Shown one piece after another: positions 2,266 to 64,000 of a stretch of 64,000 nt of DNA (position 1 is its first letter; each line of letters begins with the position of its first letter). Origin of the DNA: a virus; the IMG/VR virus record IMGVR_UViG_3300030060_004050, positions 1 to 64,000 of that record; one strand, 5' to 3'. The translations under genes and the position numbers were made by a program. The notes under the pieces were generated by a model. That model was not told the origin of the DNA. It made no database searches and saw only the letters and a list, made by a program, of their open reading frames with translations.

Positions 2266-2323
2266 GGTCAAAATTCCTTATCGGACAGAGGAGGTCATGT
2301 CTCGGAATCGTCCCGAGAACATG

Positions 2324-2654: not shown

Positions 2655-2658
2655 GTAT

Positions 2659-4998: not shown

Positions 4999-5037
4999 CT
5001 CTCACAGGATAGAGTCCAATGGATTCTCCTGTTTAAC

Positions 5038-5079
5038 GTCCCCCGTACTTAGTGACTCAGGTGCGGGGGACATCTTTTT
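5038..5079 (+). terminator. Rho-independent terminator
   Basis: GTCCCCCGTAC/GTGCGGGGGAC stem followed by a T tract, after the cobT-like stop. Confidence 0.7.
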
Positions 5080-5125
5080 ACTATCACGCCGGCGTATATG
5101 CACCTATATAGTATAGGAGTACGTT

Positions 5126-5413: not shown

Positions 5414-5459
5414 TGCGCCTTATGCCTCGACAAACCTATTAAAATAATATTAAATTAAT

Positions 5460-5491
5460 TAAAAACCCTCCTGGCACTACGCCAAGAGGGT
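5460..5491 (-). terminator. Terminator downstream of the Flp pilin
   Basis: ACCCTC-TGGC...GCCA-GAGGGT stem; the A run at 5460-5465 gives a U tail on the minus strand. Confidence 0.55.
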
Positions 5492-5514
5492 CTCTATTTT
5501 CGTGTTATGTGGGT

Positions 5515-5712
5515 TTACCCGCCTCCACCTACGCTACCATCAGAGGCAACATTAAGTGCTTCAGTCATCTCTTGAAACTTTGCGGTCTGCCCGTCACGCA
5601 CTGCCTTAACAGCACCGATTGAACCCGCACCCATTACAGTACCAAGGATCATATACTCTGCGACTTGCATACCCTCTTCGTCTCGTAAAAACTTCTTAAT
5701 TGCTTCAAACAT
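5515..5712 (-). CDS. flp: Flp/Fap (type IVb/Tad) prepilin
   Basis: 65 aa; leader KFLRDEEG, then G|MQVAEY with E+5/Y+6, followed by a hydrophobic helix. GAAAGGA RBS, with CATAAATA upstream at 5748-5755. Confidence 0.8.
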   Translation of the reverse strand: MFEAIKKFLRDEEGMQVAEYMILGTVMGAGSIGAVKAVRDGQTAKFQEMTEALNVASDGSVGGGG

Positions 5713-5760
5713 TTAGTTTTCCTTTCTAACTATTTTGTTTTTTCTTTTATTTATGTGGGT

Positions 5761-6423
5761 TCACCTAAAAGGTAGACCTAAGTTGTTTAGGAAATCTAAT
5801 ATTGTCCACAATGTGTTGTAGTATTCTTGACTTAGGAAGATGGCGTCTGGACTTACTGCATTATTTTGTCCAAATTGAAGTACTCCATCCACATTCTCAA
5901 TAGTAAATGCTCCATTGGGTCCAAACAGGACATTTAAGTCACCCATACCACCAGGCGAGTGTTCTCTGAGGAAGTTAAACAAATCATTCACAATATCTCC
6001 CGTATAATCTCCCTGAAGGAATGATCTTTCCGCCCACCTAAGAAAGTCTAGAACCATTCGAACACTTTCGGCGTTTCCTACGTCCAACAAACCTTCAATT
6101 TCAGTTAAAAATGCCTCCCACAAGTTGTTCCATGGTACACCACCACCAGTCCACCAGTCTGGAGGCATTCCCATTATTCTCGATAGGTTTCCCATAATTC
6201 TTTCCCATACTGGATTGTCCATGATATGTCTACCAATGGAAAATCCAGAATCCGAATCCATGGGTCCAGTTAATCTTCCTTTTGGAAAGTTTGGTTCTGG
6301 TGTTGGACGACCTCCACCACCACCACCATCTGCAATGCGAAGCAATCTACCAAGCACTCTTCCGAGTTGCTCATTTAGACCTTGTTGCTTGTCAAAATTG
6401 TCGTATTTTTCGTAAAGATTCAT
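5761..6423 (-). CDS. Putative head-internal (gp21-processed) protein
   Basis: Leader MNLYEKY...GLNE|Q, then a cationic amphipathic helix and a Gly/Pro linker. Confidence 0.6.
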   Translation of the reverse strand: MNLYEKYDNFDKQQGLNEQLGRVLGRLLRIADGGGGGGRPTPEPNFPKGRLTGPMDSDSGFSIGRHIMDNPVWERIMGNLSRIMGMPPDWWTGGGVPWNNLWEAFLTEIEGLLDVGNAESVRMVLDFLRWAERSFLQGDYTGDIVNDLFNFLREHSPGGMGDLNVLFGPNGAFTIENVDGVLQFGQNNAVSPDAIFLSQEYYNTLWTILDFLNNLGLPFR

Positions 6424-6995
6424 GGTAGTGGGTTACCATATCCGTTTTCTAGGATATCAATCATGATGTCTATGAGTCCGTCTACGATACCAAGGATACC
6501 CTCCATGTAGATCTGAAGTTGTTGATCAATTGCAGGATCGGTGTGGTGGAAGAATATTCTTCCGGCGTCTACATCCCAACTGATGGTTATATCCATGTCG
6601 TACAGATAGTCGAGTAATGAATTTGCAGCAGCCTCACTTGCTGAGTTTGGAGTTCCCATTATTTTTCTCAACATCATTCTGAATGCAAGAAATGCGTCTT
6701 CATGTAGTTGAAAGAGACCTGGGAAAATGTTGGGGAGATTGTTGTAGTATTGTTCTGCAACTTCCCGAAGCATACCTAGAATTTCATCAGCATAACCGGG
6801 GTTTACCAGTGAGTCAGGTTTGAAACCTGATTCTGGTTTTGGTTTTGGTGTACGAGGACCTCTTGGTGGTCTTCCACCAACAATTGGAGGAGAAGGCCTT
6901 CTTGGGATTAAGTCACCAAGATATCTGACGAGTCTACCTAAGGCTTGTTCATCTAACTCTATAAATTCTTTAAATGTGTACATTTTTTTATCCAT
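6420..6995 (-). CDS. Putative head-internal protein
   Basis: Leader MYTFKEFIELDE|Q resembles the T4 capsid-targeting sequence MKTYQEFIAE. Confidence 0.6.
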   Translation of the reverse strand: MDKKMYTFKEFIELDEQALGRLVRYLGDLIPRRPSPPIVGGRPPRGPRTPKPKPESGFKPDSLVNPGYADEILGMLREVAEQYYNNLPNIFPGLFQLHEDAFLAFRMMLRKIMGTPNSASEAAANSLLDYLYDMDITISWDVDAGRIFFHHTDPAIDQQLQIYMEGILGIVDGLIDIMIDILENGYGNPLP

Positions 6996-7442
6996 TTATC
7001 CAAACATTTCGTCCAAGTAGTTTCGAATGTCCATCGGGTTGTTTGGATCTGGAGGTCCCATCAAAGGAGATCCCGGCGTTCCAACAGGAGGATCGCCAGT
7101 AATAGGTCCGACAAATCCAGCAGGAACCTCTCCGTAGGGGTTGGAACCGGGAGGACGAGGAGATGCTTGATCAATAAGATCCAAAAGAGATGCGTCATCA
7201 AGATTTGCGTTGTTTGGATCGGTGATAATGTCAACAATCTTGTCTATTTCGGGATCAATTTCAACATCAATATCTGGACCTCGAACAATTCGTTTAACAG
7301 CACGAATTAAAGTCCTGATTAAGTTCTCTTGTAGATAAATGACTTCTTCATTTAACGTATTGTTACGTTTAGCGACGGCTTCTCTTAATTGCTTAAGCAA
7401 AGTTTGTCGATTCCAATTATCGTACTTACCATATAAGTTCAT
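6996..7442 (-). CDS. Putative head-internal protein
   Basis: Start reassigned to ATG 7442 (MNLYGKYDNW, paralogous to the 5761-6423 leader); TATACATA upstream at 7464-7471. Confidence 0.6.
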   Translation of the reverse strand: MNLYGKYDNWNRQTLLKQLREAVAKRNNTLNEEVIYLQENLIRTLIRAVKRIVRGPDIDVEIDPEIDKIVDIITDPNNANLDDASLLDLIDQASPRPPGSNPYGEVPAGFVGPITGDPPVGTPGSPLMGPPDPNNPMDIRNYLDEMFG

Positions 7443-7502
7443 AACTGTCTCCCAGTGGTACAATATGTATACGGCATATATATTTGATATTGGAGAGAAA
7501 AC

Positions 7503-8135
7503 ATGTCCACACCATTTCAAAAATATCTGATTGAACAACTACAAACGGTTCCGAATATCAAACCCTACGATATGGATGGGGATGGTGTCCCTGATCTCAT
7601 TCAAAAACCAGTGGAGCCAGTGAAAGATCCGTTTCCTGGCATAGATGATGACTATTGGAATCCTCCAATGGCTCCCCCTGACATTGATGATATCATGTAC
7701 GCATATCCAGATTTGTTTAATGAGGTAATGCAGGAGTTTGCAGATTGGATAATTGAAAACTTTGCTCAGGGAAATCCAACCATCACTCGGTTGATGAGAC
7801 TTTTTGGATACGGACCAGAAGATCTTTTGAATGCTAATTTAACCGGACAGCAAATTTTAGAAAGTATCATATATGTGATTCAAAACTGGGGAGATCCTAG
7901 TGTTGGTGGACAACTTCCTGACTTCCCGTTTAGAGGACCTATCATGACTGGAAATCTTGGTTCCGGTGAAGGATTTGGTGGTTTGTTCGGAACTGTTTCC
8001 AATCTTCTCAACGACTACTTGGATCAAATCATGGATGGTACGCTTTACGGAGATGATCCCCAAACGGCAGATTACATTGCACAATTCTTGCAAATGTTAA
8101 TCGATGCAATCAATCAACAAGAAGGAAATCCGTAA
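7503..8135 (+). CDS. Putative head-internal protein with a DxDxDG loop
   Basis: Leader MSTPFQKYLIE|Q; contains DMDGDGVPD; GGAG RBS. Confidence 0.6.
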   Translation: MSTPFQKYLIEQLQTVPNIKPYDMDGDGVPDLIQKPVEPVKDPFPGIDDDYWNPPMAPPDIDDIMYAYPDLFNEVMQEFADWIIENFAQGNPTITRLMRLFGYGPEDLLNANLTGQQILESIIYVIQNWGDPSVGGQLPDFPFRGPIMTGNLGSGEGFGGLFGTVSNLLNDYLDQIMDGTLYGDDPQTADYIAQFLQMLIDAINQQEGNP

Positions 8136-8146
8136 ACTTTTCTGGT

Positions 8147-8154
8147 TATACATA
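8147..8154 (+). promoter_or_regulatory. Late-promoter-like TATACATA (representative of a recurring motif)
   Basis: The same octamer lies upstream of genes at 9429, 14033, 38571 and 54731 on plus, and at 7464, 13989, 19331 and 24948 on minus. It differs by one base from the T4 late promoter TATAAATA. Confidence 0.65.
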
Positions 8155-8182
8155 AAACAGACACACTTTCAAGGAGAAACTT

Positions 8183-8374
8183 ATGTCATTTTACATCAAC
8201 GAATTCAAACAACATCTCGCTGACGTTGCTAAGAAGGTAGATCGTCCATACGACGAACCAGCATCACGACGACAGATGCAAGAGACTCGCACCGTGGGCG
8301 AAGTCTATGCTTCAATGCCTAAAAGACCAGTTCCTCAGCACCTAATGGAACAAATTACAAAGCAAAGAAGTTGA
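8183..8374 (+). CDS. Hypothetical protein
   Basis: 63 aa, AAGGAG RBS, TATACATA upstream. Confidence 0.6.
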   Translation: MSFYINEFKQHLADVAKKVDRPYDEPASRRQMQETRTVGEVYASMPKRPVPQHLMEQITKQRS

Positions 8375-8377
8375 AAC

Positions 8378-9016
8378 ATGCATAGGTGGAACGAACTATC
8401 TGAAAGCACACAACGTTGGTTGGAGCAAAATGGCTATCAACCGGATCTTCCTGTTCAGAGATCTCTTCATGAATCTTTGAATGAACCATTAGATGAACAA
8501 ACGGGCAGTGCTATCAGAAACTTACTGCGACTCTTAAAAAGAAGTCCTGAAGTTCCAGATACTCCCGGTGGCGGAGGAGTTCCCATCCCCGGTAGTGGTG
8601 GTGTTCCCAAACCATTCGTTATGGATGATCTTGTAAATATGTTAGATGATTTTCCCACCAGCGGTCAAGGTGGAATGCTCGGTATTCTTCAGTCTATCCT
8701 AAATGGAAGTCTAACAGGAAAGGCTCTCGAAAATCAAATGCAATTGTATGGTAGAATGTTCCGACAGTTTGGTTGGGAGTTCTATGACAATGGCGGTAAC
8801 GTAGGAATTAGAGAAATTAAGGGATTTGAGCCTTCCGGTAATCCTGTGGTCGCATCGGAACAAGGATTCTATGATACGTTAGCAGAGATTCTTTCTGATC
8901 TCTTTGGTCAAAACAACATCCCATGGAGTCCCGGAATGGTGATTCCACCAAGTTCGATCTCTCCAAACTTCCCTGCCGGTGGAGGCGGACGATTCGTACC
9001 CTTCGATGAAATTTAA
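8378..9016 (+). CDS. Putative head-internal protein
   Basis: Several LxE sites (LHE, LNE, LDE|Q), then the helix SAIRNLLRLLKRS and a Pro/Gly linker. Confidence 0.6.
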   Translation: MHRWNELSESTQRWLEQNGYQPDLPVQRSLHESLNEPLDEQTGSAIRNLLRLLKRSPEVPDTPGGGGVPIPGSGGVPKPFVMDDLVNMLDDFPTSGQGGMLGILQSILNGSLTGKALENQMQLYGRMFRQFGWEFYDNGGNVGIREIKGFEPSGNPVVASEQGFYDTLAEILSDLFGQNNIPWSPGMVIPPSSISPNFPAGGGGRFVPFDEI

Positions 9017-9034
9017 TTTAAAAAGAGAAAACAA

Positions 9035-9072
9035 ATGAATCTAAACGAACAACTACAACAAGCATATGAAGC
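9035..9072 (+). repeat. 38-bp exact direct repeat (second copy at 16089-16126)
   Basis: ATGAATCTAAACGAACAACTACAACAAGCATATGAAGC occurs at both positions. Confidence 0.9.
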
Positions 9073-9367
9073 AGGTCGTCAACAGGCTCTCAATGAGCAG
9101 GTGATGCCGAATCCATACATGCCAACATCTACCCCAGACATGAAGGGTATGAGTGATCTTAACGATCCGATGCTCTATGGTAAGATGCGATACGGTAAGA
9201 AATACTCCGGTATTCCATCAGGTCAGCAAAGAAGTAGTGGTATGTCTCCTCCGGGTGGCTGGAACACTGGTTATGAAGGCCAGACTTGGGAAGACAGGTT
9301 TGGTAACTTCTACCAATATAAAGGTGGACGGTGGGTACATTTGTCCAAACTCTCCACCAATAAGTAA
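9035..9367 (+). CDS. Putative head-internal protein
   Basis: Leader MNLNEQLQQAYEAGRQQALNE|Q, which is also found at 16089. Confidence 0.6.
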   Translation: MNLNEQLQQAYEAGRQQALNEQVMPNPYMPTSTPDMKGMSDLNDPMLYGKMRYGKKYSGIPSGQQRSSGMSPPGGWNTGYEGQTWEDRFGNFYQYKGGRWVHLSKLSTNK

Positions 9368-9386
9368 AAAAAGAAAACAAAAAAAG

Positions 9387-9411
9387 AAACCCCACTTCGG
9401 TGGGGTTTTTT
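9387..9411 (+). terminator. Rho-independent terminator
   Basis: AAACCCCAC-TTCG-GTGGGGTTT followed by a T run. Confidence 0.85.
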
Positions 9412-9467
9412 ATTGAATCATATTTCGTTATACATATAATACAAACATAGACACAAGCGAGGAAATA

Positions 9468-10457
9468 ATGCCAAGCCCATTTCAAACACATTTAATCAAT
9501 ACTCTTCGAGAGCAAGTTGATCCGAAAATTGCTGCGAATCAACCTTTACGAATGTTTGGACCTACTGGAAAAGAAGTTAACCCAGCAGACGTTGGTATTG
9601 ATGTTAAACCAGTAGACACCGATGGTGAAGTAGAAGTTGTAGATCCTCCAGATCCAGATGATGTAGAAAACGAAGAGGGCGAACAACCAATTGACTATCC
9701 TAATGGACTTGAACCAGTGGACGTTGATGGTGATGGAGTAACAGATCACTGGGTAGACGCTGCCGGAAACATTTATGATGTCACCATCATTTCTGTTAAC
9801 CATAATGGTGTAGATGGGTATATGGAGGTAATTACATACTCCTACACCAACGCAAATGGTGTGACTTATCAATTAGGTTTCGTCAACAACATGTGGCAAT
9901 TAATTGGTGAGGTTAATGGTATTCCAACTCTCATGCCTGGTGTCTTTATCGTGAACTTCCAAGGAGGAGGCACTCCCGTGTGGGGATATCAAGATCACCT
10001 CGGAAACTACTGGTTTACCATTGGGGATCCATACGCAACCAATCCACCAGCAACTTGGACAAACCCACTGACAGGTGGTCAAGTTGCTGGTGATCAAGTT
10101 GATTATCCACAGGGTTGGAGTGTTTGGATGGATTTCCAATTCGACAGCAACGGAAATCCAGTTGGTGTAAGTGGAATTCCACTTGTTCCCGGCGGTGGTC
10201 AGCAAAACACTATCCGTCCAGGCGCATCCAGTATTCCGGGTACACAAACAGGAATTTTTGTTGGAGTTAACATTCCATTTCCCAGTGAGTCATATGGTGG
10301 TAGTCCATTCCTACACCGAATTATGTGGGGACATTTTGTTAACTTGTATCTTGAAATATTCGGAGAACATCCACCAGAGTCTTCATGGCCTACAAACGCA
10401 GACTGGTGGGATATATGGTCTCAACCACCATTAGGATACGGTCCTCCCTATAGTTGA
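9468..10457 (+). CDS. Putative head-internal protein, aromatic/Gly/Pro-rich
   Basis: Leader MPSPFQTHLINTLRE|Q (cf. MSTPFQKYLIE|Q); contains DVDGDGVTD; TATACATA upstream. Confidence 0.6.
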   Translation: MPSPFQTHLINTLREQVDPKIAANQPLRMFGPTGKEVNPADVGIDVKPVDTDGEVEVVDPPDPDDVENEEGEQPIDYPNGLEPVDVDGDGVTDHWVDAAGNIYDVTIISVNHNGVDGYMEVITYSYTNANGVTYQLGFVNNMWQLIGEVNGIPTLMPGVFIVNFQGGGTPVWGYQDHLGNYWFTIGDPYATNPPATWTNPLTGGQVAGDQVDYPQGWSVWMDFQFDSNGNPVGVSGIPLVPGGGQQNTIRPGASSIPGTQTGIFVGVNIPFPSESYGGSPFLHRIMWGHFVNLYLEIFGEHPPESSWPTNADWWDIWSQPPLGYGPPYS

Positions 10458-10479
10458 AAACTAAACAAGGAATAAAAAA

Positions 10480-10908
10480 ATGTCAAACATTAAAAGTATA
10501 ATCGCAGAGTATTTACAAGAACAGGGTAGTGTATCAGTTCCATCTCCACCAGGCGCCGGGGGTGGTGCAATCGACTGGAGCGGAGGGACATTCCAAGGAG
10601 GAGTTCTCACCAATATCAGTGGAAATGGTGCAGGACAAGGTGGACCTCCAACTCCCGGTGGCGGAATCGACTGGGGCGGTGGACAAAACCAAGGTGGTAT
10701 CCTTACTCCAATTATGAAACCAGACTTTACTGGTGGTGGTGCTGGTGCTGGTGGTGGCCAAGGCAAACCCACCAACCTTCCACCTTGGGCAATCGGCAGA
10801 CCACAAGTCGGTATTCGTCCCGTCATAGGATCGGGTGGTCAACTTGGTGTTGGTGGAAGATTTGTACTTCAAGGACTTGGTGACGTAAAACCACTACCAA
10901 AACGATAA
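10480..10908 (+). CDS. Gly-rich putative head-internal protein
   Basis: Leader ...AEYLQE|Q; internal duplication GG.IDW.GG..QGG.LT.I. Confidence 0.55.
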   Translation: MSNIKSIIAEYLQEQGSVSVPSPPGAGGGAIDWSGGTFQGGVLTNISGNGAGQGGPPTPGGGIDWGGGQNQGGILTPIMKPDFTGGGAGAGGGQGKPTNLPPWAIGRPQVGIRPVIGSGGQLGVGGRFVLQGLGDVKPLPKR

Positions 10909-10920
10909 GGAAAATATATA

Positions 10921-11223
10921 ATGCCAATTTATGAATATGAATGTGAGTCGTGTGAGCATGTATTTGAAGTGATGCTTGGAATGAATGATCGTGATAAACC
11001 TCTTGAAGATCCTTGTCCTGAGTGTTCCGAAAAAAGTGTGCGAAGATCGGTTGGTATGTTTCAAGCCGGAGCAGATTCTACCATGACGGTGGATAAGATG
11101 TGTCCCGGATTCTCTAAGAGAATGGATCATATCAAAAAAGGTGCGATGATCAATGAATCCGCAAGGAAGAACATTGATCGGGCACAAAACTTTAGTCCCC
11201 ATGGATACCTGAAACCAAGTTAA
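10921..11223 (+). CDS. FmdB-family zinc-ribbon protein
   Basis: MPIYEYECESC...CPECS with two CxxC pairs. Confidence 0.85.
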   Translation: MPIYEYECESCEHVFEVMLGMNDRDKPLEDPCPECSEKSVRRSVGMFQAGADSTMTVDKMCPGFSKRMDHIKKGAMINESARKNIDRAQNFSPHGYLKPS

Positions 11224-11325
11224 TGGATAATGACTTTTTCATTTTACTTTTATTGACATGTGTAATGCTCCTTGATATATGGTCACCGGAGGACAAAGAA
11301 TAGATAGGTAAGCAAGGAGACTTAC

Positions 11326-12558
11326 ATGGCACTAGAATTTTCAGAGATTGCGACTCTTGGATGCCTATTCTACAGTGAAAGAGAATTGAAAAAAGCAGCG
11401 AGTGACGTAGGGACACTCGCTAAGTTTACTGCTACTGTTCGAGATAAAGTAAACAAAGATCGATTCGTCAAGTTCGGAACAGGAAAAGCAGAGTTCATTC
11501 GTGCCATGGATCCCACAAATAAAGTGGTTCTTGATGATATGTGTAGAGGTATCTCTGCTGCACTTGCAATCAAGAAGTGGATGACTCAGCACCACAACGA
11601 ACCAACAGACACAAAAATTAAAGCCGGATACATGACTGGTAATGTCTGGCCTTCTCCCGTCGATGCATTTAAAATCGATGCGTTTGGTATGGCAGACTAC
11701 AACTCCTCGGACTTCATTCTATACACCGGGAGACAGGGAACCAACGAATACTACTATGGCATTTCTCTCAAGAAGAAAAATGTAGAACATGCTGCCGATC
11801 CCACCCTAATTAATAAGGCATTTGATTCTGTCATGGACGGTAGAGAATTTGACAAGATCAAAGATGACATCAAGACACTGAGAGTCTCTTGGTTTGCGAA
11901 CAAAGTACGAGAGGCGAGTAAGCAAGGACTAATCCAAATAGAATCCGCACACGAAAAACTACCAGATGAAAAACTTATACTTTCAAGTCCTGCTGGAACC
12001 AAAAAATCATACCCTAATATCAAAGGTTTGTTGAAGGAAGGGTATGAGTCTGGTAATGGGTTTAGAACGTGGATGAACCGACAGGTTGGTAGGGGAGATC
12101 TCTATAGTTCTATGATGAAAATTATTGAACCTCACATGGAGATGTTTGCAAACTCCTTGATTAACTTAGTTCTCAAGGTAAATCTAAACGACAAACTAAA
12201 CGCAAACAAAGATCTTAACAAGTACTATTTTGGATTTGCACTAGCAACTGGGGTAGGACAGATGAAAAAGGACGTTCCTTTCGTTGGTACGGGATCTGTG
12301 TACCCACAGGAGAGTGTCTTGTGTGCTTTGAGTCATCTTGCAAGTTCTAAGAAACCATTCAAGATGGTTCAGGTTCCAAACCCCGCCGGCGATGAATCAG
12401 ACGCAGCAAAGGTGTTCTTTGAAATTCGCAAGGGTAATGTTGCTATTTTAGATCTGCAAGTTCGCTATAAAGGTTCTTTCACTGCACAACCTCAGTTCCA
12501 GGCATTCCTCACCAAAGACTTTAAGAGAATTATCGCTGGCGAATGCGTTAATCCTTGA
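11326..12558 (+). CDS. Putative PD-(D/E)xK / restriction-endonuclease-like protein
   Basis: SSDFIL...YGISLKKK resembles a D...SxK nuclease core; AAGGAG RBS; TTGACA at 11253. The function is an inference. Confidence 0.4.
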   Translation: MALEFSEIATLGCLFYSERELKKAASDVGTLAKFTATVRDKVNKDRFVKFGTGKAEFIRAMDPTNKVVLDDMCRGISAALAIKKWMTQHHNEPTDTKIKAGYMTGNVWPSPVDAFKIDAFGMADYNSSDFILYTGRQGTNEYYYGISLKKKNVEHAADPTLINKAFDSVMDGREFDKIKDDIKTLRVSWFANKVREASKQGLIQIESAHEKLPDEKLILSSPAGTKKSYPNIKGLLKEGYESGNGFRTWMNRQVGRGDLYSSMMKIIEPHMEMFANSLINLVLKVNLNDKLNANKDLNKYYFGFALATGVGQMKKDVPFVGTGSVYPQESVLCALSHLASSKKPFKMVQVPNPAGDESDAAKVFFEIRKGNVAILDLQVRYKGSFTAQPQFQAFLTKDFKRIIAGECVNP

Positions 12559-12567
12559 TATATAAAA

Positions 12568-12780
12568 GACAACCTCCCGCCTGTGACTCTGAGCGGGAGG
12601 TCGTCTACTATGATGACGGTCGTAAGGTAGCGAAATTCCTTGGTGTAGATTAAAACACAGAATAATCTACACCGTGCATGGATGGCGCAACGTTCTGGAA
12701 CACTGTCGCCAAGTTGCCCGGCCGCCTGATTTTGTATAATTGAAAAAACGACGGCACCACTTAAGGCGTCGTCGTTTTTT
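12568..12780 (+). ncRNA. Putative structured RNA mimicking 23S rRNA helices 69-71
   Basis: 12616-12642 matches the universal 23S segment ACGGTCCTAAGGTAGCGAAATTCCTTG at 26/27 positions, with H69-like and H71-like hairpins. It is bounded by TATATAAA (12559-12566) and a terminator. Confidence 0.6.
12743..12780. terminator. Bidirectional terminator
   Basis: AAAAAACGACGGC...GTCGTCGTTTTTT. Confidence 0.8.
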
Positions 12781-12846
12781 CGAGTTAAAGTATTGGTTTC
12801 TTTTACTCACTGTTATATGTATAAAACCACAGTAAAAAGAGAACAC

Positions 12847-12871
12847 AAAAAACCCCTCTTACGAGGGGTTT
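12847..12871 (-). terminator. Terminator for ORF 12901-13944
   Basis: AAACCCCTC-TTAC-GAGGGGTTT, with the A run giving a U tail on the minus strand. Confidence 0.8.
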
Positions 12872-12900
12872 CTTGTTTAAATTTAAAATTATTTTTCGGA

Positions 12901-13944
12901 TCAACCTGGTCCTCCGGGACCACCGGGACCACCACCACCGCCGGGAGGATCACCACCACCAGTGTCATCGCCTCCGGGAGGATCACCACCACCAGTGTCA
13001 TCACCACCATCATCAACATCATCCCCTGGCGGTTCCTCGGGAGGATCACTTGGCGGAACTGGAGGTCCACCTGATTCGGTGTTTTGGTGTTCGTTATTCT
13101 CCAACCAATCCAAAAGTTCTGCACCCAACCAGATTGCACCTGCAACGGCAGCAGCGATGAGTACAGCCTGGAACCAAGCGGGTTGCCTGTCCCACCAACC
13201 CGCAAGTCCGCCTTCTGGTGCGTTCCAATCAGAGGGTTCGTCTGGCACCCATGCTCCATCGTCATACACACCATCACCGTCAGGATCTGCTACCCATTGA
13301 CCGTTAGCGAGTCTACGGACAACGTATGGTACTCCGAGGTATTGAGGTGGATTTCCGGGAAGAAATTCAATGTAAAGTCCACCACCATGAGCGATGTGTG
13401 CAGGCATACCGTTTCCAGCAGGAACGCTGAACAGTGGAATACCCATGTCATCGAACATTAAAAATTGCCAGTTACCGGGAATTGGTTGAACTTGACCGTT
13501 CATATAAATGTACTGTTGTGCGATTGCACCGTCAGGACCGATGACTCGGTAGATCTTAATAAGATTACCACCGATTTCAATTTCTACTAGGTTTACCTGA
13601 TAACCTGCTGGTAGTGGGTAAAGTCCGTTTGCAGTGAACCAATCGATCAACCACTGTGGTAGAACTTGAACGGGAACACCCTCTGAGTCTTGTGTACCAT
13701 TGTCATCAACAATAACACCACCACTCTCTACTGGTCTAATTGTAAGATTTGGCTTTGATGGTCTTTTACCCATAATAGGACCTGGTGGGACATTGGGTGC
13801 AAGTTTAAGGCCCTGGTCGCCACCTGCTTGCTCAAACATAGTACCATAATACATCCACCTCATCGGGGAAGGTGATGAAAGTACTTTCTCTAGTGCATCT
13901 TCAAACTGTTCTTGAAGCATTCGTTTAAATGAATAGTCGCTCAT
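12901..13944 (-). CDS. Putative head-internal protein with a single transmembrane helix
   Basis: Leader MSDYSFKRMLQE|Q; contains DPDGDGVYD; hydrophobic segment WFQAVLIAAAVAGAIWLGAELL; acidic Gly/Pro tail; TATACATA upstream. Confidence 0.6.
   Translation of the reverse strand: MSDYSFKRMLQEQFEDALEKVLSSPSPMRWMYYGTMFEQAGGDQGLKLAPNVPPGPIMGKRPSKPNLTIRPVESGGVIVDDNGTQDSEGVPVQVLPQWLIDWFTANGLYPLPAGYQVNLVEIEIGGNLIKIYRVIGPDGAIAQQYIYMNGQVQPIPGNWQFLMFDDMGIPLFSVPAGNGMPAHIAHGGGLYIEFLPGNPPQYLGVPYVVRRLANGQWVADPDGDGVYDDGAWVPDEPSDWNAPEGGLAGWWDRQPAWFQAVLIAAAVAGAIWLGAELLDWLENNEHQNTESGGPPVPPSDPPEEPPGDDVDDGGDDTGGGDPPGGDDTGGGDPPGGGGGPGGPGGPG
12941..13002. repeat. 29-bp tandem coding repeat (33-bp period, GGDDTGGGDPP)
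   Basis: CCGGGAGGATCACCACCACCAGTGTCATC at 12941 and 12974. Confidence 0.85.
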
Positions 13945-14074
13945 GTATTTTTCTCCATACTCGGTAGGATTACCTATTGATTGTACATTATGTATAAGAC
14001 TATTTTCTTCAACGAACCAAACTCAACTCTGTTATACATAATCATGAAGAACTTTCCAAGACTAGGAGAATACA

Positions 14075-14344
14075 ATGGCAGGAAAAGACGTTTACAAAGT
14101 AGCACAGGGGATTCCTTCGTCAGCAGGACCTACTGGGGATACTACCATATATGGTGTTGCAATATACAACGGTCATGCATCGGGGACAGGTTCGATTGGT
14201 GTTCAAACGGTGAACGGACAAAATATTCAATTTAAAAATGTTCCGGCTGGATCAATACTTCCTGTTCATCACTCTAAAGTCTACGGTGTAACTGCCGATG
14301 CAGCATTGAGAACCACAGCGACTAACATTATCTCTCTACTTTGA
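14075..14344 (+). CDS. Small virion protein resembling the head-spike base family (RcGTA Rcc01079-like)
   Basis: The C-terminal pattern FKNVPAGSILPV..KV...TTATNIISL is recalled from that family; late motif upstream. Confidence 0.5.
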   Translation: MAGKDVYKVAQGIPSSAGPTGDTTIYGVAIYNGHASGTGSIGVQTVNGQNIQFKNVPAGSILPVHHSKVYGVTADAALRTTATNIISLL

Positions 14345-14352
14345 GGATTTAA

Positions 14353-14862
14353 ATGAAAGATTATAGAACATTTCTATCCGAACAAGTAGAACTTAATGAA
14401 AAGGCAAAAAATACATTGTCTACATTAGCAGGTTCTCTTGGTGGACAAGCAGACAAAGCAAACACCATTGCAAGCACCAGAGGAGTCACTGTTAAAATTG
14501 ATCCCTCTGATGTCTCTATGATAAAAGCAATATCAGATAGAACTGTTTATAACTTTGATGCTCTTTTGAGTGGGTTCGAAGCACTTTCTTCATACACAAT
14601 ACGTCCAGAGGAGAAGGCAAACTACAAAAGAACCCTGTCTCAACTAAGAGATGAAGATCCTAGAAAAGTAAAGATACTTCAAGAGTTAGAAAATATAATG
14701 GTTCTTCCTGCAAGTGCGGACAGAACATATAGAACACAGAGTGTTCTTGACACACTAAACAACATTGCAACTGAGATGGGACAGGGAAGTTTGTCCTATG
14801 ATCAGGTGCAACCACAAACATACATACCAGGCAGGTATATGAATTTCGGTAGGGGCAACTGA
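14353..14862 (+). CDS. Putative head-internal protein
   Basis: Leader MKDYRTFLSE|Q closely resembles the T4 capsid-targeting sequence. Confidence 0.6.
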   Translation: MKDYRTFLSEQVELNEKAKNTLSTLAGSLGGQADKANTIASTRGVTVKIDPSDVSMIKAISDRTVYNFDALLSGFEALSSYTIRPEEKANYKRTLSQLRDEDPRKVKILQELENIMVLPASADRTYRTQSVLDTLNNIATEMGQGSLSYDQVQPQTYIPGRYMNFGRGN

Positions 14863-16502
14863 TGAAACTTAGTAAAAGAGATTTTAAATCGTTTAATAAG
14901 GAGGAGCAAGAACTTCTCTCAATGGTTGCTACTATGACAACTGGTGGATCCCCGGTTGTGGAACCTAAAAATTTACATCTCATGACAAAACAAGGGATGA
15001 AAGAAACCCTTGACATGATGAAAAAGGAACAGAAAAATATGTCATCAAAGGGTAAAAAGTTAGTGCAGTCAATTCTCAAAAAAGCCAAACCTCTAGCAGA
15101 GCAGGTTCAGTTTAGTCAGTACGGTAGGAAACGTCCTGACGAAGAAGAGATTCGTAAGATCGCACAGATGACACTGAACAATGCAAAGAGAAACATGGAG
15201 AAACTGGCTCCTGAAATGAAGGGTATGATGAAACCCGGAGCCGTTCGTCCACTTGAGACTGGTCAGCCTGGTGCTGTAAGTGCTGATCTTGGGTTTGATG
15301 ATCTTGCAGGGATGGTAAGAAAACCATCTCTACCTCCACCACCATCTACTGGATCACCAGTGATGCCTGGTATGGAACAGAAACCACCTATGCCTCCAGC
15401 ACCAACAATGGACGATCAACCCGCACTTCCACCTAAACCCAGACAAGCACCCCCACCTCCCGGTGGTATGCCTGGAATGCCTCCAATGCCTGGTATGGGT
15501 GGTCCTCAACCTTCTGAAACCGAAGGACCAAGAGCAATGGAACCTGCAAAGGACTTTGCTCAGAGGATGGGAATCAAAGATGTCGAAAGACACCATCTTC
15601 GTCCAGAAGAGGACGATGCTCCTGTAGACATGGCTCCAGAAACCGCAGATGCTCCCGGACCAGGAATGCCCCCTGCTGGTATGATGGCTCCACAAGCAGG
15701 TCCACAACAAGGACAACCAGTTCCTCCACAACTAGCACAAGATCCTGCTGCACCCAAGGAGATGCCTCGACAACTTCCTCCCGGAACAACCGAAGCATCA
15801 CAAGAGTTTATTGACAAGTATGCAGGTCAAATCAAGTCTTTCCTAAAGAACATTGCAAGGGAAGAAGAGGAAAAGTTTGCTAGGGCCAGAGATCTCACTG
15901 CTATGCCAAAAGCACCTATGAAAGAACAAGCAGTCAACGCAGTCGGTAGTGGTATGTCTCCTGTTGTCGGTGGAGAGGGTGAGATCAAAGGACGAGACAA
16001 GATGCTTGGTGGTAAGACTGCTGGAATGCGTCGGCGCAAAATGATGGAAAATCATACATATAGAACAAACCTTCAAGGAGAAGATGACATGAATCTAAAC
16101 GAACAACTACAACAAGCATATGAAGCCGGAAAACAGTCTGCTTTGAATGAGCAGATGTCAGGCGGTGGCGTAGGTCCTATCTTTACACCCGGACAAAGAC
16201 CAACTAGTCCTTCCCTCCAACCCAACTACGTTCCTCCCGCAGCAAATCCAAACTATAACCCAGGCCAACCCGGACATGTTCCCGGTGCAAAACCAAGAAA
16301 GCCTGGGACGGGTGGATTCCGGATTCCCGCTAGATTTGATAAGAATGGTGATGGAAAGATTGATGCTAAAGAAAGAAGAGCATATATTGAATATATGAGG
16401 CAAATGTACAAAAGATATCTTGAATATAGGCGAACCACCAATGACAATCCTCCGATGCCTTTCAATCAATATTTCAACCAACAAGGATCAAGTCAACTAT
16501 AA
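14862..16502 (+). CDS. Pro/Met-rich multi-module putative head polyprotein (contains a gp23-like segment, a second leader and an EF-hand-like loop)
   Basis: Several xxE|Q sites; EQAVNAVGSGMSPVVGGEGEIKGRD; internal AAGGAG RBS with ATG at 16089; DKNGDGKIDAKE. Confidence 0.65.
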   Translation: MKLSKRDFKSFNKEEQELLSMVATMTTGGSPVVEPKNLHLMTKQGMKETLDMMKKEQKNMSSKGKKLVQSILKKAKPLAEQVQFSQYGRKRPDEEEIRKIAQMTLNNAKRNMEKLAPEMKGMMKPGAVRPLETGQPGAVSADLGFDDLAGMVRKPSLPPPPSTGSPVMPGMEQKPPMPPAPTMDDQPALPPKPRQAPPPPGGMPGMPPMPGMGGPQPSETEGPRAMEPAKDFAQRMGIKDVERHHLRPEEDDAPVDMAPETADAPGPGMPPAGMMAPQAGPQQGQPVPPQLAQDPAAPKEMPRQLPPGTTEASQEFIDKYAGQIKSFLKNIAREEEEKFARARDLTAMPKAPMKEQAVNAVGSGMSPVVGGEGEIKGRDKMLGGKTAGMRRRKMMENHTYRTNLQGEDDMNLNEQLQQAYEAGKQSALNEQMSGGGVGPIFTPGQRPTSPSLQPNYVPPAANPNYNPGQPGHVPGAKPRKPGTGGFRIPARFDKNGDGKIDAKERRAYIEYMRQMYKRYLEYRRTTNDNPPMPFNQYFNQQGSSQL

Positions 16503-16517
16503 TTTTATAAAAAATAA

Positions 16518-16545
16518 TTGACTTTTGATAATTTTGTTGTATACT
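16518..16545 (+). promoter_or_regulatory. Sigma70-like promoter TTGACT-N16-TATACT
   Basis: Read directly upstream of the exonuclease gene. Confidence 0.65.
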
Positions 16546-16563
16546 TTATGAAACAGGTGATAT

Positions 16564-17241
16564 ATGGACTTGAAGAAATTTAAACATGTTGTCCTTGAAG
16601 AGGCGTTCAAGGATCTAAACACAGTAAATCAGAACGGACAGCGTTTCTACTCCACACCGGAGGGACACTATCCGTCTGTCACCACCGTAACTGGCTGGGA
16701 GAAGCGAAAGTTTTTCGCTAAATGGAGAGCAGAGAATCCCAAGGAATCTAGGCGAGTCCTTGATCGAGGGAACAAACTACACAGTCTCATCGAAGAGTAT
16801 ATCGACAACTGCTTCGACGACAAGACTCTTGGTGGATTGAATCCGTTCATTCTAGATCTCTTTATCAATCTGAAACCAGAGTTAGACAAGATTGACAACG
16901 TGTACGCACAAGAGGTTCCGTTATGGTCTTCCACACTAGAACTAGCAGGGCGAGTAGATTGTGTTGCTGAGTATGATGGTAAATTATCCATTATCGACTT
17001 CAAGGGTTCTACCAAGAAGAAGAGAAAAGAGGATATCCTCAACTACTTCATGCAAGCAACTGCATATTCTATTATGTGGCAAGAGATGACAGGAAAGAAG
17101 ATTGATAATATTGTAATCTTGATTGCAACAGAGACTGGTGAAACCCAAGTCTTCCAAGACAATCCTTTACGATATGTAAAAGCACTTCTCAACTGCATTC
17201 GAAACTACCAAGAAGAAATACTAGTCAATAACGAGATCTAG
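16564..17241 (+). CDS. Exonuclease, PD-(D/E)xK / Cas4-like (cyanophage ExoA type)
   Basis: Motifs YPSVTTV, RGNKLH, QEVPL, LAGRVDC, IIDFK, YFMQATAY. Confidence 0.85.
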   Translation: MDLKKFKHVVLEEAFKDLNTVNQNGQRFYSTPEGHYPSVTTVTGWEKRKFFAKWRAENPKESRRVLDRGNKLHSLIEEYIDNCFDDKTLGGLNPFILDLFINLKPELDKIDNVYAQEVPLWSSTLELAGRVDCVAEYDGKLSIIDFKGSTKKKRKEDILNYFMQATAYSIMWQEMTGKKIDNIVILIATETGETQVFQDNPLRYVKALLNCIRNYQEEILVNNEI

Positions 17242-60485: not shown

Positions 60486-60881
60486 ATGAATCTATACGAA
60501 AAGTACAATCTACTAGAGCAAGGTATGCCCCCACAACTCGCAGCAATGATGGGTGGAGGTCCGGGAGGTCCGGGAGGTCCGGGAGGTCCACAGGGCCCCC
60601 CTCCTAGTATTGCAGATAAACTTTTTGATAGAGTTAGAGCATACCCAAAAATTGATTTATTCATTCAAAAGTTGCAACAAGCAGGAGTTTCAGACTCTCG
60701 TATTCTAGATGAGATCTATGAAAAATTTAAACCAGAGTTTGTTTATTTTGCTAAAGAAATAATTCAACAGGAAAACAAACCCAAACCACCTGCTGGACCT
60801 GGAGGTCCCGGTGGTATGCCTGGTATGCCTGGTATGCCTCCAATGCCTGCTGGTGAACCCATGGGTGCAGGAGGAGAATAA
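60486..60881 (+). CDS. Gly/Pro-rich head-internal / core protein
   Basis: Leader MNLYEKYNLLE|Q is shared with the island ORFs; GGP and PGM repeats; immediately before gp21. Confidence 0.6.
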   Translation: MNLYEKYNLLEQGMPPQLAAMMGGGPGGPGGPGGPQGPPPSIADKLFDRVRAYPKIDLFIQKLQQAGVSDSRILDEIYEKFKPEFVYFAKEIIQQENKPKPPAGPGGPGGMPGMPGMPPMPAGEPMGAGGE

Positions 60882-60885: not shown

Positions 60886-61530
60886 ATGAAACTAATTACA
60901 GAAACAACTGAAGACATTAAACTCATCAAAGAAAATGTAGAGGGTGGTAATCCAAACTATTACATTAGTGGTGTGTTTATGCAAGCCGAACAAAAGAACC
61001 GAAACGGGAGAATCTATCCCAAAGATGTTCTCATGAACGAAATTAAAAAGTATAATCAAGACTTTGTTTCGGGAAAGAGAGCATTTGGTGAACTTGGACA
61101 TCCGGACGGTCCAACCGTAAACCTAGAAAGAGTATCCCACCTTATTACAGATTTACATGAAAATGGCGATGATGTGATGGGTAAAGCAAAAATCATGGAC
61201 ACCCCCATGGGTAAGATTGTAAAGAATCTTCTTGATGAAGGCGCTCAACTTGGAGTTTCCTCCCGAGGAATGGGTAGTTTAGAAGAAAAAGGTGGTAAGA
61301 AAATCGTAGGTAAAGATTTTATGCTTGCTGCCGTTGATATTGTCGCAGATCCATCTGCACCAAATGCATTCGTCGATGGAATCATGGAAGGTAAAGAGTG
61401 GATTTGGGACAATGGTATGATCAAAGAGTCTACCATTGCTGGATATAAGAACATAATCAATAAAGCAAGTCAAAGAACAGAAGACGATATCGCAACTTTC
61501 TGTTTTGCCGACTTTTTGTCCAAATTATAA
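60886..61530 (+). CDS. gp21: Prohead protease gp21
   Basis: MKLITE, KNRNGRIYP, GELGHP, GVSSRG.GS and DIVADPSAP.AFV.G motifs; start at ATG 60886 after GGAGGAG. Confidence 0.96.
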   Translation: MKLITETTEDIKLIKENVEGGNPNYYISGVFMQAEQKNRNGRIYPKDVLMNEIKKYNQDFVSGKRAFGELGHPDGPTVNLERVSHLITDLHENGDDVMGKAKIMDTPMGKIVKNLLDEGAQLGVSSRGMGSLEEKGGKKIVGKDFMLAAVDIVADPSAPNAFVDGIMEGKEWIWDNGMIKESTIAGYKNIINKASQRTEDDIATFCFADFLSKL

Positions 61531-61577: not shown

Positions 61578-62936
61578 ATGAACAGTGTAATTAACAGCGC
61601 CCGAAACCTTATGGAGCGGGCACAGCAAGAATCGGCAAAACGATCAGACGGTAGAGTTGATTTAGTAATCTCTGAACTCAACTCTATGGGCGTTTCTGAT
61701 CAGTACATCGGCGGTGTTTTAGAAAGACTTTCAGTCTTCGACAACGAGTCCGACCTCGCAGAAGCAATCGACAGAGAACTTTACAAGGCAGCACAGTTCG
61801 CTCTTATGGAAGACGACGAAGAGGATGCTACTGGTAAGGGTTCTGAGGATGCTTCCGGTAAAGGTGCTGTCTTTGCTCGTCCCGTTGCAAAGCAGGACGC
61901 AGCAAGCACCCTAAAGGGTAAAAAGAAGAAGAAGATGGAAATGGCTCATGAGGGTTACCATGAAGATGCTCACGCTTCCATGGAAGATCCTGATGACGAA
62001 AAGAAGAGAATCAAGATGATGGCCGCGTACATGAAAGAGTACGGTGGTGGTATGAAGGAAATGCACCACGGTAAGAAGAAGATGAACGCTGGTTACCATA
62101 AAGAGATGGCTCATGGTGGTAAAAAGAAGATGAACGCAGGTCACATGATGAATGCTGGACACAGCATGAAGATGGAGCATCTCGACGCTCTGTTCTCCGG
62201 CGAAGATCTAACCCCAGAGTTCAAGGCAAAGACTGCTGCAATCTTTGAAGCAGCAGTTAACGCTAGAGTTGAAGAAGTTCAAGCAGAACTAGTTCGTCAG
62301 TCAAGAGACGTATTCGTAGAGGAAGTCACTTCTGCAAAGGCAGATATGGCAGAAAAACTAGACGATTACATGAACTATGTTGTCTCTGAGTGGATGAGCG
62401 AAAACGAACTCGCCATTGATTCTGGTATTCAGACTGAAGTTACTGAGTCATTCATGACTGGTCTTCGTGATCTCTTTGAGAGTCACTACATCGAAGTTCC
62501 TGAAAGCAAGGTTGATTTGGTTGATGCACTTACCAGCAAGGTAGATGCTCTTACTGAAAAACTCAACGAGAGCATTCATGAAAACGTTCAACTAAGCAAC
62601 GCAAAGACTGTATCAAACTGTGATGCACTCTTTGAAGCCGCTTGTCACGGACTAGCAGCAACCGAAGTTGAAAAGTTTAAGTCCCTCGCAAGAGGTATTG
62701 AATATCGAACCGAGGATGAGTTTGCTACCAAACTAGCAACCATCAAGGAAAGTTACTTTAACAGTTCAGCAAGAGGCGTTTCCGGACTTCTCACTGAAAC
62801 AGTTGAAGACTACACTCTACCCTCGAACGCAGTCGCCTCTACTCCTATCGTAGAGAATCTAGATCCAAGAATGTCTGCGTACTTCAACAGCGTTGGTAGA
62901 CTCGCTGATCACGAACGCCAGAACTCACAGTCGTAA
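61578..62936 (+). CDS. gp22: Prohead scaffold gp22
   Basis: LF.GEDLT.EFK.K...IFEAAV, LDDY.NYVV.EW..EN.LA and F..K...IKE.YF motifs. Confidence 0.93.
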   Translation: MNSVINSARNLMERAQQESAKRSDGRVDLVISELNSMGVSDQYIGGVLERLSVFDNESDLAEAIDRELYKAAQFALMEDDEEDATGKGSEDASGKGAVFARPVAKQDAASTLKGKKKKKMEMAHEGYHEDAHASMEDPDDEKKRIKMMAAYMKEYGGGMKEMHHGKKKMNAGYHKEMAHGGKKKMNAGHMMNAGHSMKMEHLDALFSGEDLTPEFKAKTAAIFEAAVNARVEEVQAELVRQSRDVFVEEVTSAKADMAEKLDDYMNYVVSEWMSENELAIDSGIQTEVTESFMTGLRDLFESHYIEVPESKVDLVDALTSKVDALTEKLNESIHENVQLSNAKTVSNCDALFEAACHGLAATEVEKFKSLARGIEYRTEDEFATKLATIKESYFNSSARGVSGLLTETVEDYTLPSNAVASTPIVENLDPRMSAYFNSVGRLADHERQNSQS

Positions 62937-63008: not shown

Positions 63009-64000
63009 ATGAGTAATCTCGAAACCGCAGCCCAGTTCTTGGGTGAGAAATGGAAGCCCATCATTGAGCATCCAAGTCTTCCCGCCATTAAGGACTCATA
63101 TAGAAAGAACGTCACAACCGTTCTTCTTGAGAACCAAGAGAAGGCACTTCAAGAGCAGGCTAACAACATTGTAGGTGGCGGTATGTCGCCTGTCGTAGGT
63201 AGTGAAGGTGAGATTAAGGGTTTCGATCCTATTCTTATCTCGCTCGTTCGTCGTGCTATGCCTAACCTAATGGCATACGATATCTGTGGTGTTCAGCCAA
63301 TGACTGGACCTACTGGACTTATCTTCGCACTTCGTGCTAAGTTTGCCACACAGGATGGTACTGAAGCCCTCTTCAACGAACCTGACTTTACCTTCTCCGG
63401 TTCTACCAGTGCAACTGGTGGTACTGGTATCACTCACGGTGCTTCCGGTACTGATGGTGATCCAATTGGTCAAGCAGCATTCCGAGATGGTGCTAGTGCT
63501 GATGGTAACGCCAACTCTTACTCCGGTGCTACCGTACAGGGTGGTCTTTCTACTTCTGTCGGTGAAGTCCTTGGTGCATCTGGTAACTTCGTATTCCCAG
63601 AGATGGCATTCAGCATCGAGCGAACCTCGGTTGAAGCCAAGACTCGCGCCCTCAAGGCAGAGTACACCACTGAACTCGCACAGGACCTCAAGGCTGTTCA
63701 CGGACTAGACGCTGAGACTGAACTTGCTAACATCCTTAGCACCGAAGTCCTTGCTGAAATCAACCGTGAAGTCATCCGTACCATCTACCGAATTGCTAAA
63801 CTTGGTGCCCAGCAGAGTGATCTCTACTTTGGACCAGGTGGTACTACAACTGCTGGTGCCCTCAAGGCAGCAACTGGTGGTGGTGCAACCGCTATCGCAA
63901 CTGCTGGACTCGGTGGTATCTACGACCTCGACAAGGACTCTGACGGACGTTGGAGTGCTGAGAGATTCCGTGGACTCCAGTTCCAGTTAGAGCGTGAAGC
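63009..64000 (+). CDS. gp23: Major capsid protein gp23 (partial, runs off the window end)
   Basis: Translated by hand: MSNLETAAQFLGEKWKPIIEH...FDPILISLVRRAMPNLMAYDICGVQPMTGPTGLIFALR; AAGGAG RBS; TATATAAA at 62950. Confidence 0.97.
   Translation, partial: MSNLETAAQFLGEKWKPIIEHPSLPAIKDSYRKNVTTVLLENQEKALQEQANNIVGGGMSPVVGSEGEIKGFDPILISLVRRAMPNLMAYDICGVQPMTGPTGLIFALRAKFATQDGTEALFNEPDFTFSGSTSATGGTGITHGASGTDGDPIGQAAFRDGASADGNANSYSGATVQGGLSTSVGEVLGASGNFVFPEMAFSIERTSVEAKTRALKAEYTTELAQDLKAVHGLDAETELANILSTEVLAEINREVIRTIYRIAKLGAQQSDLYFGPGGTTTAGALKAATGGGATAIATAGLGGIYDLDKDSDGRWSAERFRGLQFQLERE

Follow-up and report, generated by a model that had tools for sequence, protein, structure and literature searches.

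Between positions 5,761 and 16,502 of the IMG/VR virus record IMGVR_UViG_3300030060_004050 lies an island of 15 open reading frames (ORFs), here labelled A to O, in which 11 coding units begin with leaders of 10–40 amino acids (aa) ending in L-x-E, usually followed by Gln. The window analysed, 64,000 nt in length, makes up the first 64 kb of a single-contig genome of 118,538 bp with 132 called genes. The phage belongs to a T4-like, Kyanoviridae-like marine lineage; the collections searched contained no cultured phage closely related to it. In phage T4, a capsid-targeting sequence (CTS) is the textbook route for loading head proteins that are delivered together with the DNA, and IPI* is a classic injected anti-restriction protein. 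Together, the sequence features described below suggest that the island proteins are probably targeted to the prohead core and trimmed by the gp21 protease to become head proteins, which would make them part of an expanded T4 internal-protein (IP) system comprising around 20 genes genome-wide.

An N-terminal L-x-E-Q motif concentrated in the island

We confirm the motif to be real and non-random. Within the first 45 residues of the 132 genes, L.EQ occurs 17 times in 5,544 positions, whereas the remaining 31,713 positions contain it 14 times; the N-terminal rate is 7 times the latter and ~19 times the compositional expectation (1.6e-4). The comparison with other genes proposed in a preliminary description of this DNA gave a clear result: 9/15 island genes contain L.EQ in their first 45 residues, as opposed to 7/117 elsewhere (Fisher p = 1.6e-6). 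Four of these seven outside genes adjoin head genes (60486, 64574) or fall in a second cluster at 109–118 kb, and not a single replication or nucleotide-metabolism gene has L.EQ in its first 45 aa. All six Leu codons, both Glu codons and both Gln codons are used to encode the motif, and selection therefore acts on the peptide rather than on the RNA.

Might the pattern have arisen by chance, or from composition, when ORFs were called in a region rich in Pro and Gly? The motif is short, with three fixed residues, and low-complexity regions do give spurious ORFs in several frames. However, the Fisher test, the 19-fold excess over composition and the retention of the leader in orthologues and homologue families (see below) effectively refute this explanation, to which we attach next to no weight.

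The eleven leaders that had been quoted from the island were all found at their gene starts, the one at 16089 starting at a Met within ORF O, in the same frame. The earlier picture of leaders across the island thus holds for 11 coding units, but J, K, M and the N-terminal part of O are without one and E is without a clear site. The island genes are as follows, with predicted cuts marked by a slash and the motif at the leader end given in brackets:

A, 5761..6423, minus strand, 220 aa: leader MNLYEKYDNFDKQQGLNE/Q (GLNEQ), basic amphipathic helix LGRVLGRLLRIA, Gly/Pro linker, acidic C-terminal domain
B, 6420..6995, minus strand, 191 aa: leader MYTFKEFIELDE/Q (ELDEQ), then helix ALGRLVRYLGDLI; true start probably Met5
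C, 6996..7442, minus strand, 148 aa: long leader MNLYGKY...TLNEEVIYLQE/N (YLQEN), then helix LIRTLIRAVKRIV; heads the C-B-A operon
D, 7503..8135, plus strand, 210 aa: leader MSTPFQKYLIE/Q (YLIEQ); mature isoelectric point (pI) 4.1; DGDGVPD motif
E, 8183..8374, plus strand, 63 aa: starts MSFYINEFKQHL, leader-like, with no clear early L-x-E; heads the E-F-G operon
F, 8378..9016, plus strand, 212 aa: 40-aa leader ending PLDE/Q (PLDEQ), then helix GSAIRNLLRLLKR and Gly/Pro linker
G, 9035..9367, plus strand, 110 aa: two-site leader MNLNE/QLQQAYEAGRQQALNE/Q (ALNEQ), in one class with 16089 and genome position 64574
H, 9468..10457, plus strand, 329 aa: leader MPSPFQTHLINTLRE/Q (TLREQ), variable acidic linker, conserved Trp-rich beta-type domain with a DGDG motif
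I, 10480..10908, plus strand, 142 aa: leader MSNIKSIIAEYLQE/Q (YLQEQ), then a basic low-complexity protein, 43% Pro+Gly
J, 10921..11223, plus strand, 100 aa: zinc-ribbon protein, FmdB-like (Pfam Zn_ribbon_8, 7.8e-15), without leader and outside the tagged set
K, 11326..12558, plus strand, 410 aa: without leader; phrog_3060 (7.5e-35), a family without assigned function
L, 12901..13944, minus strand, 347 aa: leader MSDYSFKRMLQE/Q (MLQEQ), acidic mature part, Pro/Gly/Asp tail
M, 14075..14344, plus strand, 89 aa: without leader; heads the M-N-O operon
N, 14353..14862, plus strand, 169 aa: leader MKDYRTFLSE/QVELNE/K (FLSEQ)
O, 14862..16502, plus strand, 546 aa: Met/Pro-rich; G-like module MNLNEQLQQAYEAGKQSALNE/Q (ALNEQ) from an internal in-frame start at 16089

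That the proteins behind these leaders are otherwise unrelated, as had been noted from the sequence alone, withstood closer comparison at the sensitivity of the searches used. All-versus-all BLASTP among them matches leaders to leaders only (those of G, the internal module of O and 64574), apart from a segment of O that is linked to gp23, and hhalign detected no match between cargo families: aligning the H family with L, or the F family with A, recovered only the DGDG motif and Gly runs. Pfam and PHROGs returned no cargo family or domain on the island proteins, their matches being confined to J and K. The island had no megablast match in phage records, gene A had none by tblastn against 50,697 phage records or in an IMG/VR scan, and the ESM Atlas yielded no usable match for L, a protein with a single strong hydrophobic segment (aa 260–278). 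Rfam reported no family at gathering score in 5000–17500, a range that includes the convergent K–L intergenic region (12559–12900). The Pro/Gly richness described previously is likewise evident, with fractions of 0.19–0.43 in the island mature parts versus 0.124 genome-wide and with N (0.10) as the exception.

Leader form and resemblance to the T4 capsid-targeting sequence

In T4, gp21 cuts after the Glu of L/I-X-E, and propeptides of ~7–65 residues end in L/I-x-E (PMC9026906). Within the T4 CTS, MKTYQEFIAE, residues 4 and 7 serve targeting and residues 8 and 10 processing (PMC9026906). The closest match in the island is MKDYRTFLSE of gene N, which agrees with the T4 CTS, by identity or an L/I exchange, at M1, K2, Y4, F7, L8 and E10. 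Of the two leaders previously likened to the T4 sequence, this one reproduces T4 positions 4, 7, 8 and 10 exactly, and that of B (MYTFKEFIELDE read from Met5) is CTS-like and close. The H leader is also near the T4 determinants, and the D leader, MSTPFQKYLIE, has the T4 CTS spacing with a one-residue shift (F5-Y8-L9-E11). Formulated as [FYW]xx[FYW][LI]xE in the first 20 aa, the pattern is present in 6 genes versus 0.2 expected; outside the island, the T4 determinants are present in 66634, 116328 and 117533.

Two further leader classes end in the same terminal site, namely MNLYEKY... (A, C, 60486, 65733) and ...AYEAGRxxALNEQ (G, 16089, 64574). The residue following the cut (P1') is Gln almost throughout. 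Many leaders hold at least two L-x-E sites, and redundant cleavage sites have been reported for phiKZ propeptides (PMC9026906).

Conserved leaders on diverging proteins

The island has a syntenic counterpart in a related phage, on IMG/VR contig L081. Flanking genes are 70–91% identical between the two (exonuclease, 88%), as compared to 25–60% for island orthologues. For B, D, G, H, I and N, the leaders are 50–91% identical and the next 40 aa 15–48%; the respective values are 69% and 18% for B (whose L081 orthologue starts MHSFKEFIQLDE), 75% and 22% for D, 68% and 18% for G, and 73% and 25% for I. Overall identity to the L081 counterpart is 27% for A, a weak orthologue, 33% for L, 53% for E and 62% for M. 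In the left part of the L081 island, the leader-bearing genes are partly different.

Homologue families behave alike. Among 1.84 billion representative proteins, the N family has 15 homologues, and in an alignment of 14 sequences (to 23% identity) the first eleven residues form the best-conserved block (consensus MKDFKTFLSEQ), with M1, F7 and Q11 invariant and K2 and T6 nearly so. Five marine metagenomic homologues of H (79–38% identity) share invariant M1, F5, Q6, L13 and Q16 and a common layout of leader, ~60 hypervariable residues and conserved domain. For F, residues H2, W4-T11 and L38-D-E40 are invariant across 4 homologues. The internal-protein locus of T-even phages has been described as a hyperplastic locus between conserved genes (PMC3012670). 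With its leaders conserved and its proteins diverging, the island behaves like such a locus, in which the tag is kept and the cargo changes.

Head genes and the presumed partners of the leaders

The head module at the right end of the window supplies the factors that such a system would require:

portal protein (gp20), 57448-58959, in the gp20–gp21 region (57.4–61.5 kb)
ORF at the gp68 position, 60486..60881, plus strand, 131 aa, directly upstream of gp21; starts MNLYEKYNLLEQ
gp21-type prohead protease, 60886..61530, plus strand (phrog_207, 1e-81); presumed processing enzyme
gp22-type scaffold protein, 61578..62936, plus strand (phrog_237, 3.7e-72); presumed docking partner of the leaders
gp23 major capsid protein, 63009..64000, plus strand (phrog_138, 3.2e-82), extending beyond the window end
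predicted gp23 maturation site L47-Q-E49/Q50, nt 63147-63158

The preliminary description had placed the same motif in gp23 (ALQE49/Q50) and in the ORF beside gp21 (MNLYEKYNLLEQ), and both occurrences are present. The gp23 protein matches T4 gp23 structures at 3e-39, and in the stretch that separates its conserved propeptide block from its conserved core, ALQE49/Q50 (A46-L-Q-E49) is the sole canonical L-x-E site. The ORF at 60486-60881 has the leader MNLYEKYNLLE/Q, of the class of A and C, followed by Gly/Pro/Met-rich sequence; four further contigs (L001–L004) keep this leader as MNL[YF]EK[YH]NLI.EQ/GPPPG. In our own reading, based on its position and N-terminal sequence, the preceding ORF (60052-60480) would be gp67-like.

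In ORF O, aa 352–394 (nt 15915-16043) copy gp23 aa 46–88 (63144-63272), comprising the cleavage site and the mature N-terminus (PMKE/QAVNAVGSGMSPVVGGEGEIKG; PMKEQAVNAVGSGMSPVVGGEGEIKG in O versus ALQEQANNIVGGGMSPVVGSEGEIKG in gp23). The copy is kept in the L081 orthologue and may point to capsid-protein-like processing of O, or to docking where the capsid N-arm docks. Contig L085 encodes the C-terminal module of O (16089-16502, leader MNLNEQ...ALNEQ) as a gene of its own (4821-5932). This supports independent expression of the module in the window, and the phage studied here therefore has it either fused in frame or as a nested gene.

A promoter-like motif common to the island and structural genes

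The heptamers ATAAATA and ATACATA are each ~9-fold enriched within the 80 nt upstream of genes. A TATACATA-type motif precedes the sheath (54732) and tube (56809) genes and several genes of the baseplate region, its structural-gene sites being 54732, 56809, 50060, 24954 (minus strand) and 19337 (minus strand). In the island, it is found upstream of C (for C-B-A), E (E-F-G), H (H-I), L, M (M-N-O) and O:

7464-7470, minus strand: TATACATA site, 21 nt upstream of C
8148-8154: TATACATA site of E
9430-9436: TATACATA site of H
13989-13995, minus strand: TATACATA site of L
14034-14040: TATACATA site of M
16054-16060: TCATACATATA motif, 28 nt before the internal start 16089

Several island genes had been said to follow late-promoter motifs. 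What stands of this is a promoter-like motif common with structural genes; it mostly reads TATACATA and not TATAAATA as in T4. The T4 late promoter TATAAATA was accordingly rejected as the island promoter, given that island, sheath and tube genes mostly have TATACATA. We infer from the shared motifs that the island genes are late-expressed.

A proposed route into the head

Taken as a whole, these features suggest the following course of events. The island would be a late-expressed, fast-evolving block in which 11 of 15–16 coding units bear a removable N-terminal address tag. The leader of 10–40 residues would fold as a short amphipathic helix and dock its protein on the gp22 scaffold core during prohead assembly, as the T4 CTS does. 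The gp21 protease would then cut after the Glu of L-x-E, mostly before Gln, at the same motif that is predicted to mature gp23; the leader peptide would leave, and the mature protein would be retained with the DNA inside the head and could exit together with it at infection. Docking, cleavage, head retention and host delivery are all steps that we infer.

Cleavage would leave A, B, C and F with a basic amphipathic helix exposed at their new N-terminus. In each of them, such a helix of 12–15 residues directly follows the predicted cut (A 6369-6332, B 6944-6909, C 7322-7287, F 8501-8539; for instance LGRVLGRLLRIA, LIRTLIRAVKRIV and GSAIRNLLRLLKR), with the Gly/Pro linker coming next, and counterparts with a post-cut helix are present in L081 (genes 1-606, 1152-1835, 1804-2394 and 3787-4437). 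Membrane or DNA binding is a possible role. Calcium-binding-like motifs of the DxDGDG type recur in many tagged proteins (D 7575-7595, H 9717-9746, L 13269-13293 on the minus strand, O 16332-16367, and the gp67-like ORF 60211-60240; examples are DMDGDGVPD, VDVDGDGVTD, DPDGDGVYD and DKNGDGKID), with only sub-threshold EF-hand matches in Pfam. An AlphaFold2 model of N (predicted local distance difference test, pLDDT, 67) comprises a leader helix (residues 4–19, moderate confidence) and a three-helix bundle.

Tagged genes beyond the island and in other marine phages

Similar leaders are found elsewhere in the genome, at 60486, 64574, 66634, 111676, 115494, 117533 and possibly 109661, and the tagged set genome-wide amounts to ~20/132 genes (~15%), 11 of which are in the island. 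For 109661, LNEQ as a tag added to a conserved protein was not retained, the case being ambiguous with only 5–6 extra residues relative to orthologues. Two tagged proteins have recognisable domains: a 904-aa protein with cytidylyltransferase-like (nucleotidyltransferase), DUF192 and HNH domains (leader MKSYREIQANIRE/Q), and a 401-aa DUF6267 protein (leader MKNFLTYLKE/S). Their genes are near each other, at genome positions 112496-115210 and 116328-117533 (8497-11211 and 12329-13534, minus strand, in contig L082). Since phrog_455 covers parts of both proteins, the two appear to be fused in some phages; homologues are present in Pelagibacter phage HTVC008M and most cyanomyoviruses. Depending on the phage, DUF6267 and nucleotidyltransferase homologues have the tag or lack it.

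A survey of 153 marine T4-like IMG/VR loci (1,987 distinct genes) found the T4-type pattern at 40 N-termini, versus 2.9 expected. Its carriers include small, very basic proteins directly upstream of gp21 as well as enzyme-size proteins. Near-T4 CTS starts were found on contigs L050 (3-371), L044 (3310-3678), L064 (9705-10004), L075 (1683-2422) and L091 (6246-8509), in the form of MKTYSEFIAE (L050), MLSFKEFIAE or MKTFKELRE..., or as clusters of MKSF..YISE genes. These proteins look like classical internal-protein analogues; the basic one of L050 had no tblastn match in phage records. These counts indicate that the leader code is widespread in marine T4-like phages and that the phage studied here is an expanded case. 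Consequently, the earlier description of an unusually large set holds relative to T4 (IPI, IPII, IPIII and Alt) but is less apt for marine members of the T4-like phages, in which leaders of this type are common.

As for the genome itself, the portal protein finds its best matches in cyanomyoviruses, with identity to isolated-phage portals of ≤54%, and one gene outside the window has its best isolate match in HTVC008M (Kyanoviridae), at 45%. A terminal overlap of the contig, which would join the leader cluster at 109–118 kb to the island, was sought and none was found; the genome may therefore be incomplete. The G+C content is 54% in the first 4 kb, 48% in the 4–6 kb bin and ~41% in the rest of the genome. 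Positions 1-5000 of the window encode a 779-aa vWA/CobT-like protein (phrog_459 'peptidase', 1.4e-182). Just left of the island, a 65-aa ORF (5515-5712, minus strand; MFEAIKKFLRDEEGMQVAEYMILGT...) downstream of a CATAAATA motif resembles a Flp/Tad-type prepilin, with no Pfam or PHROG match.

Weighing the head-targeting interpretation

Several observations count against the island proteins being gp21-trimmed head proteins. Packaging and cleavage are predictions from sequence, and the phage is apparently uncultured. The gp23 site is a predicted one: T4 gp23 is cut at 65/66 (mature form, 456/521 residues), whereas in a HMMER alignment the ALQE block pairs with T4 residues 43–46 and not with that cut. 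Of the ten mature island proteins, seven (A, B, C, D, F, H and L) have an acidic pI of 4.1–4.9, and only G, I and N are basic. Unlike the small, basic, DNA-associated IPs of T4, the mature proteins are hence mostly acidic and Pro/Gly-rich and measure 100–350 aa. The mature parts show no depletion of internal [LI]-x-E sites (38 observed versus 28.7 expected) and hence no sign of having been selected to withstand the protease, in a test that is uninformative insofar as controls behave alike. The MNLYEKY... and ...AYEAGRxxALNEQ classes do not fit the T4 CTS determinants, and the MNLYEKY class of A and C is also borne by the conserved gp68-position ORF beside gp21. Lastly, the AlphaFold2 models of N and H (pLDDT 67 and 44, respectively) are too weak for fold searches.

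Could the tagged and processed proteins be prohead core or scaffold accessories instead, that is, gp67/gp68-like filler or size-determining proteins that are degraded and expelled before DNA packaging? Their acidic, disordered, Pro/Gly-rich composition resembles that of scaffold-type proteins, and the leader class common to A, C and the gp68-position ORF would fit core- or scaffold-like roles equally well. The internal L/I-x-E sites, which are not avoided, would permit multiple cuts, and T4 gp22 and gp67 are indeed cut to fragments that exit the head (PMC9026906). Moreover, the gp67-like ORF (60052-60480) and the leader ORF (60486-60881) are the only ORFs at the position that T4 gp67 and gp68 hold between genes 20 and 21. 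The island proteins are reminiscent of gp67/gp68 in their acidic, disordered composition, and A and C carry MNLYEKY-class leaders. In contrast to gp67/gp68, however, the island lies at 5.7–16.5 kb, ~45 kb from the head module, and its genes are numerous and variable among relatives. A set of twenty distinct core proteins would have no precedent, divergence in the island is far faster than in the structural genes that flank it, gene content differs between related phages, and several island proteins (H, F, N) have folded, conserved C-terminal domains. Besides, the same tag is found on enzyme-type proteins elsewhere in the genome (nucleotidyltransferase-DUF192-HNH and DUF6267). We regard a core- or scaffold-related role of this kind as a serious alternative, though an unlikely one.

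A second alternative is that the shared N-terminus remains uncleaved and has no packaging role, being an oligomerisation, chaperone-docking or membrane helix, or a feature of late-mRNA translation. In its favour, the evidence is sequence-based, some non-head genes (19358, 89672) have an N-terminal L.EQ, and leader classes 2 and 3 lack the T4 CTS determinants. Yet the motif agrees both with the cleavage rule of gp21 and with the site in the gp23 of this phage, T4 CTS positions 4, 7, 8 and 10 are reproduced, the varied codons speak against an RNA signal, and replication and nucleotide-metabolism genes are free of N-terminal L.EQ. In light of this, a function of this kind appears quite improbable.

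We thus favour prohead-core targeting and gp21 trimming. A more far-reaching proposal, in line with the arsenal of injected effectors envisaged in the preliminary description, would be that ~20 unrelated, rapidly diversifying proteins are loaded into the head by a code extending from T4 to marine phages, trimmed at L-x-E/Q and delivered with the DNA as takeover or anti-defence effectors. With a recognisable domain in none of the cargo proteins, and with mature parts that are mostly acidic, this extension is plausible but less likely than not.

Comparison with known systems and significance

The proposed system is of a known type, that of the T4 CTS and internal proteins, and what is new is its scale, its leader classes, the Gln at P1' and the acidic, Pro/Gly-rich cargo. 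As in T4, the N-terminal tag ends in L/I-x-E, and gp21, gp22 and gp23 are encoded by the phage. Also as in T4, a conserved tag is combined with diverse cargo in a hypervariable locus between conserved flanks (PMC3012670, PMC9026906). The tagged set of T4 comprises IPI, IPII, IPIII and Alt, four in all (PMC9026906), whereas ~11 tagged genes are found in the island and ~20 in the genome here, with at least three leader classes and a P1' residue that is mostly Gln. In addition, no homology to IPI, IPII, IPIII or Alt was found (Pfam and PHROGs; tblastn for gene A). In phiKZ, 201phi2-1 and SPN3US, many head proteins are likewise cut after Glu by a gp21-related protease, have redundant propeptide sites and are ejected into the host (PMC9026906); these jumbo phages differ, however, in their S/A-x-E sites, in possessing an inner body and in that a T4-type CTS is not involved. 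A search of the open literature for 'capsid targeting' together with cyanophages found only a general T4 review linking the two.

What does this imply for marine T4-like phages? The same code is found in a distant marine T4-like lineage, on many unrelated ORFans of a hypervariable late island. Should these proteins turn out to be expelled scaffold filler, our view of the complexity of the T4-type prohead core would still be revised. If packaging is true, a simple sequence rule would assign a head location and a delivery route to much of the 'dark matter' of marine phages. It would also indicate candidate counter-defence and takeover proteins. If the proteins are in fact delivered as effectors, such effectors would become readable from the genomes of uncultured marine phages.

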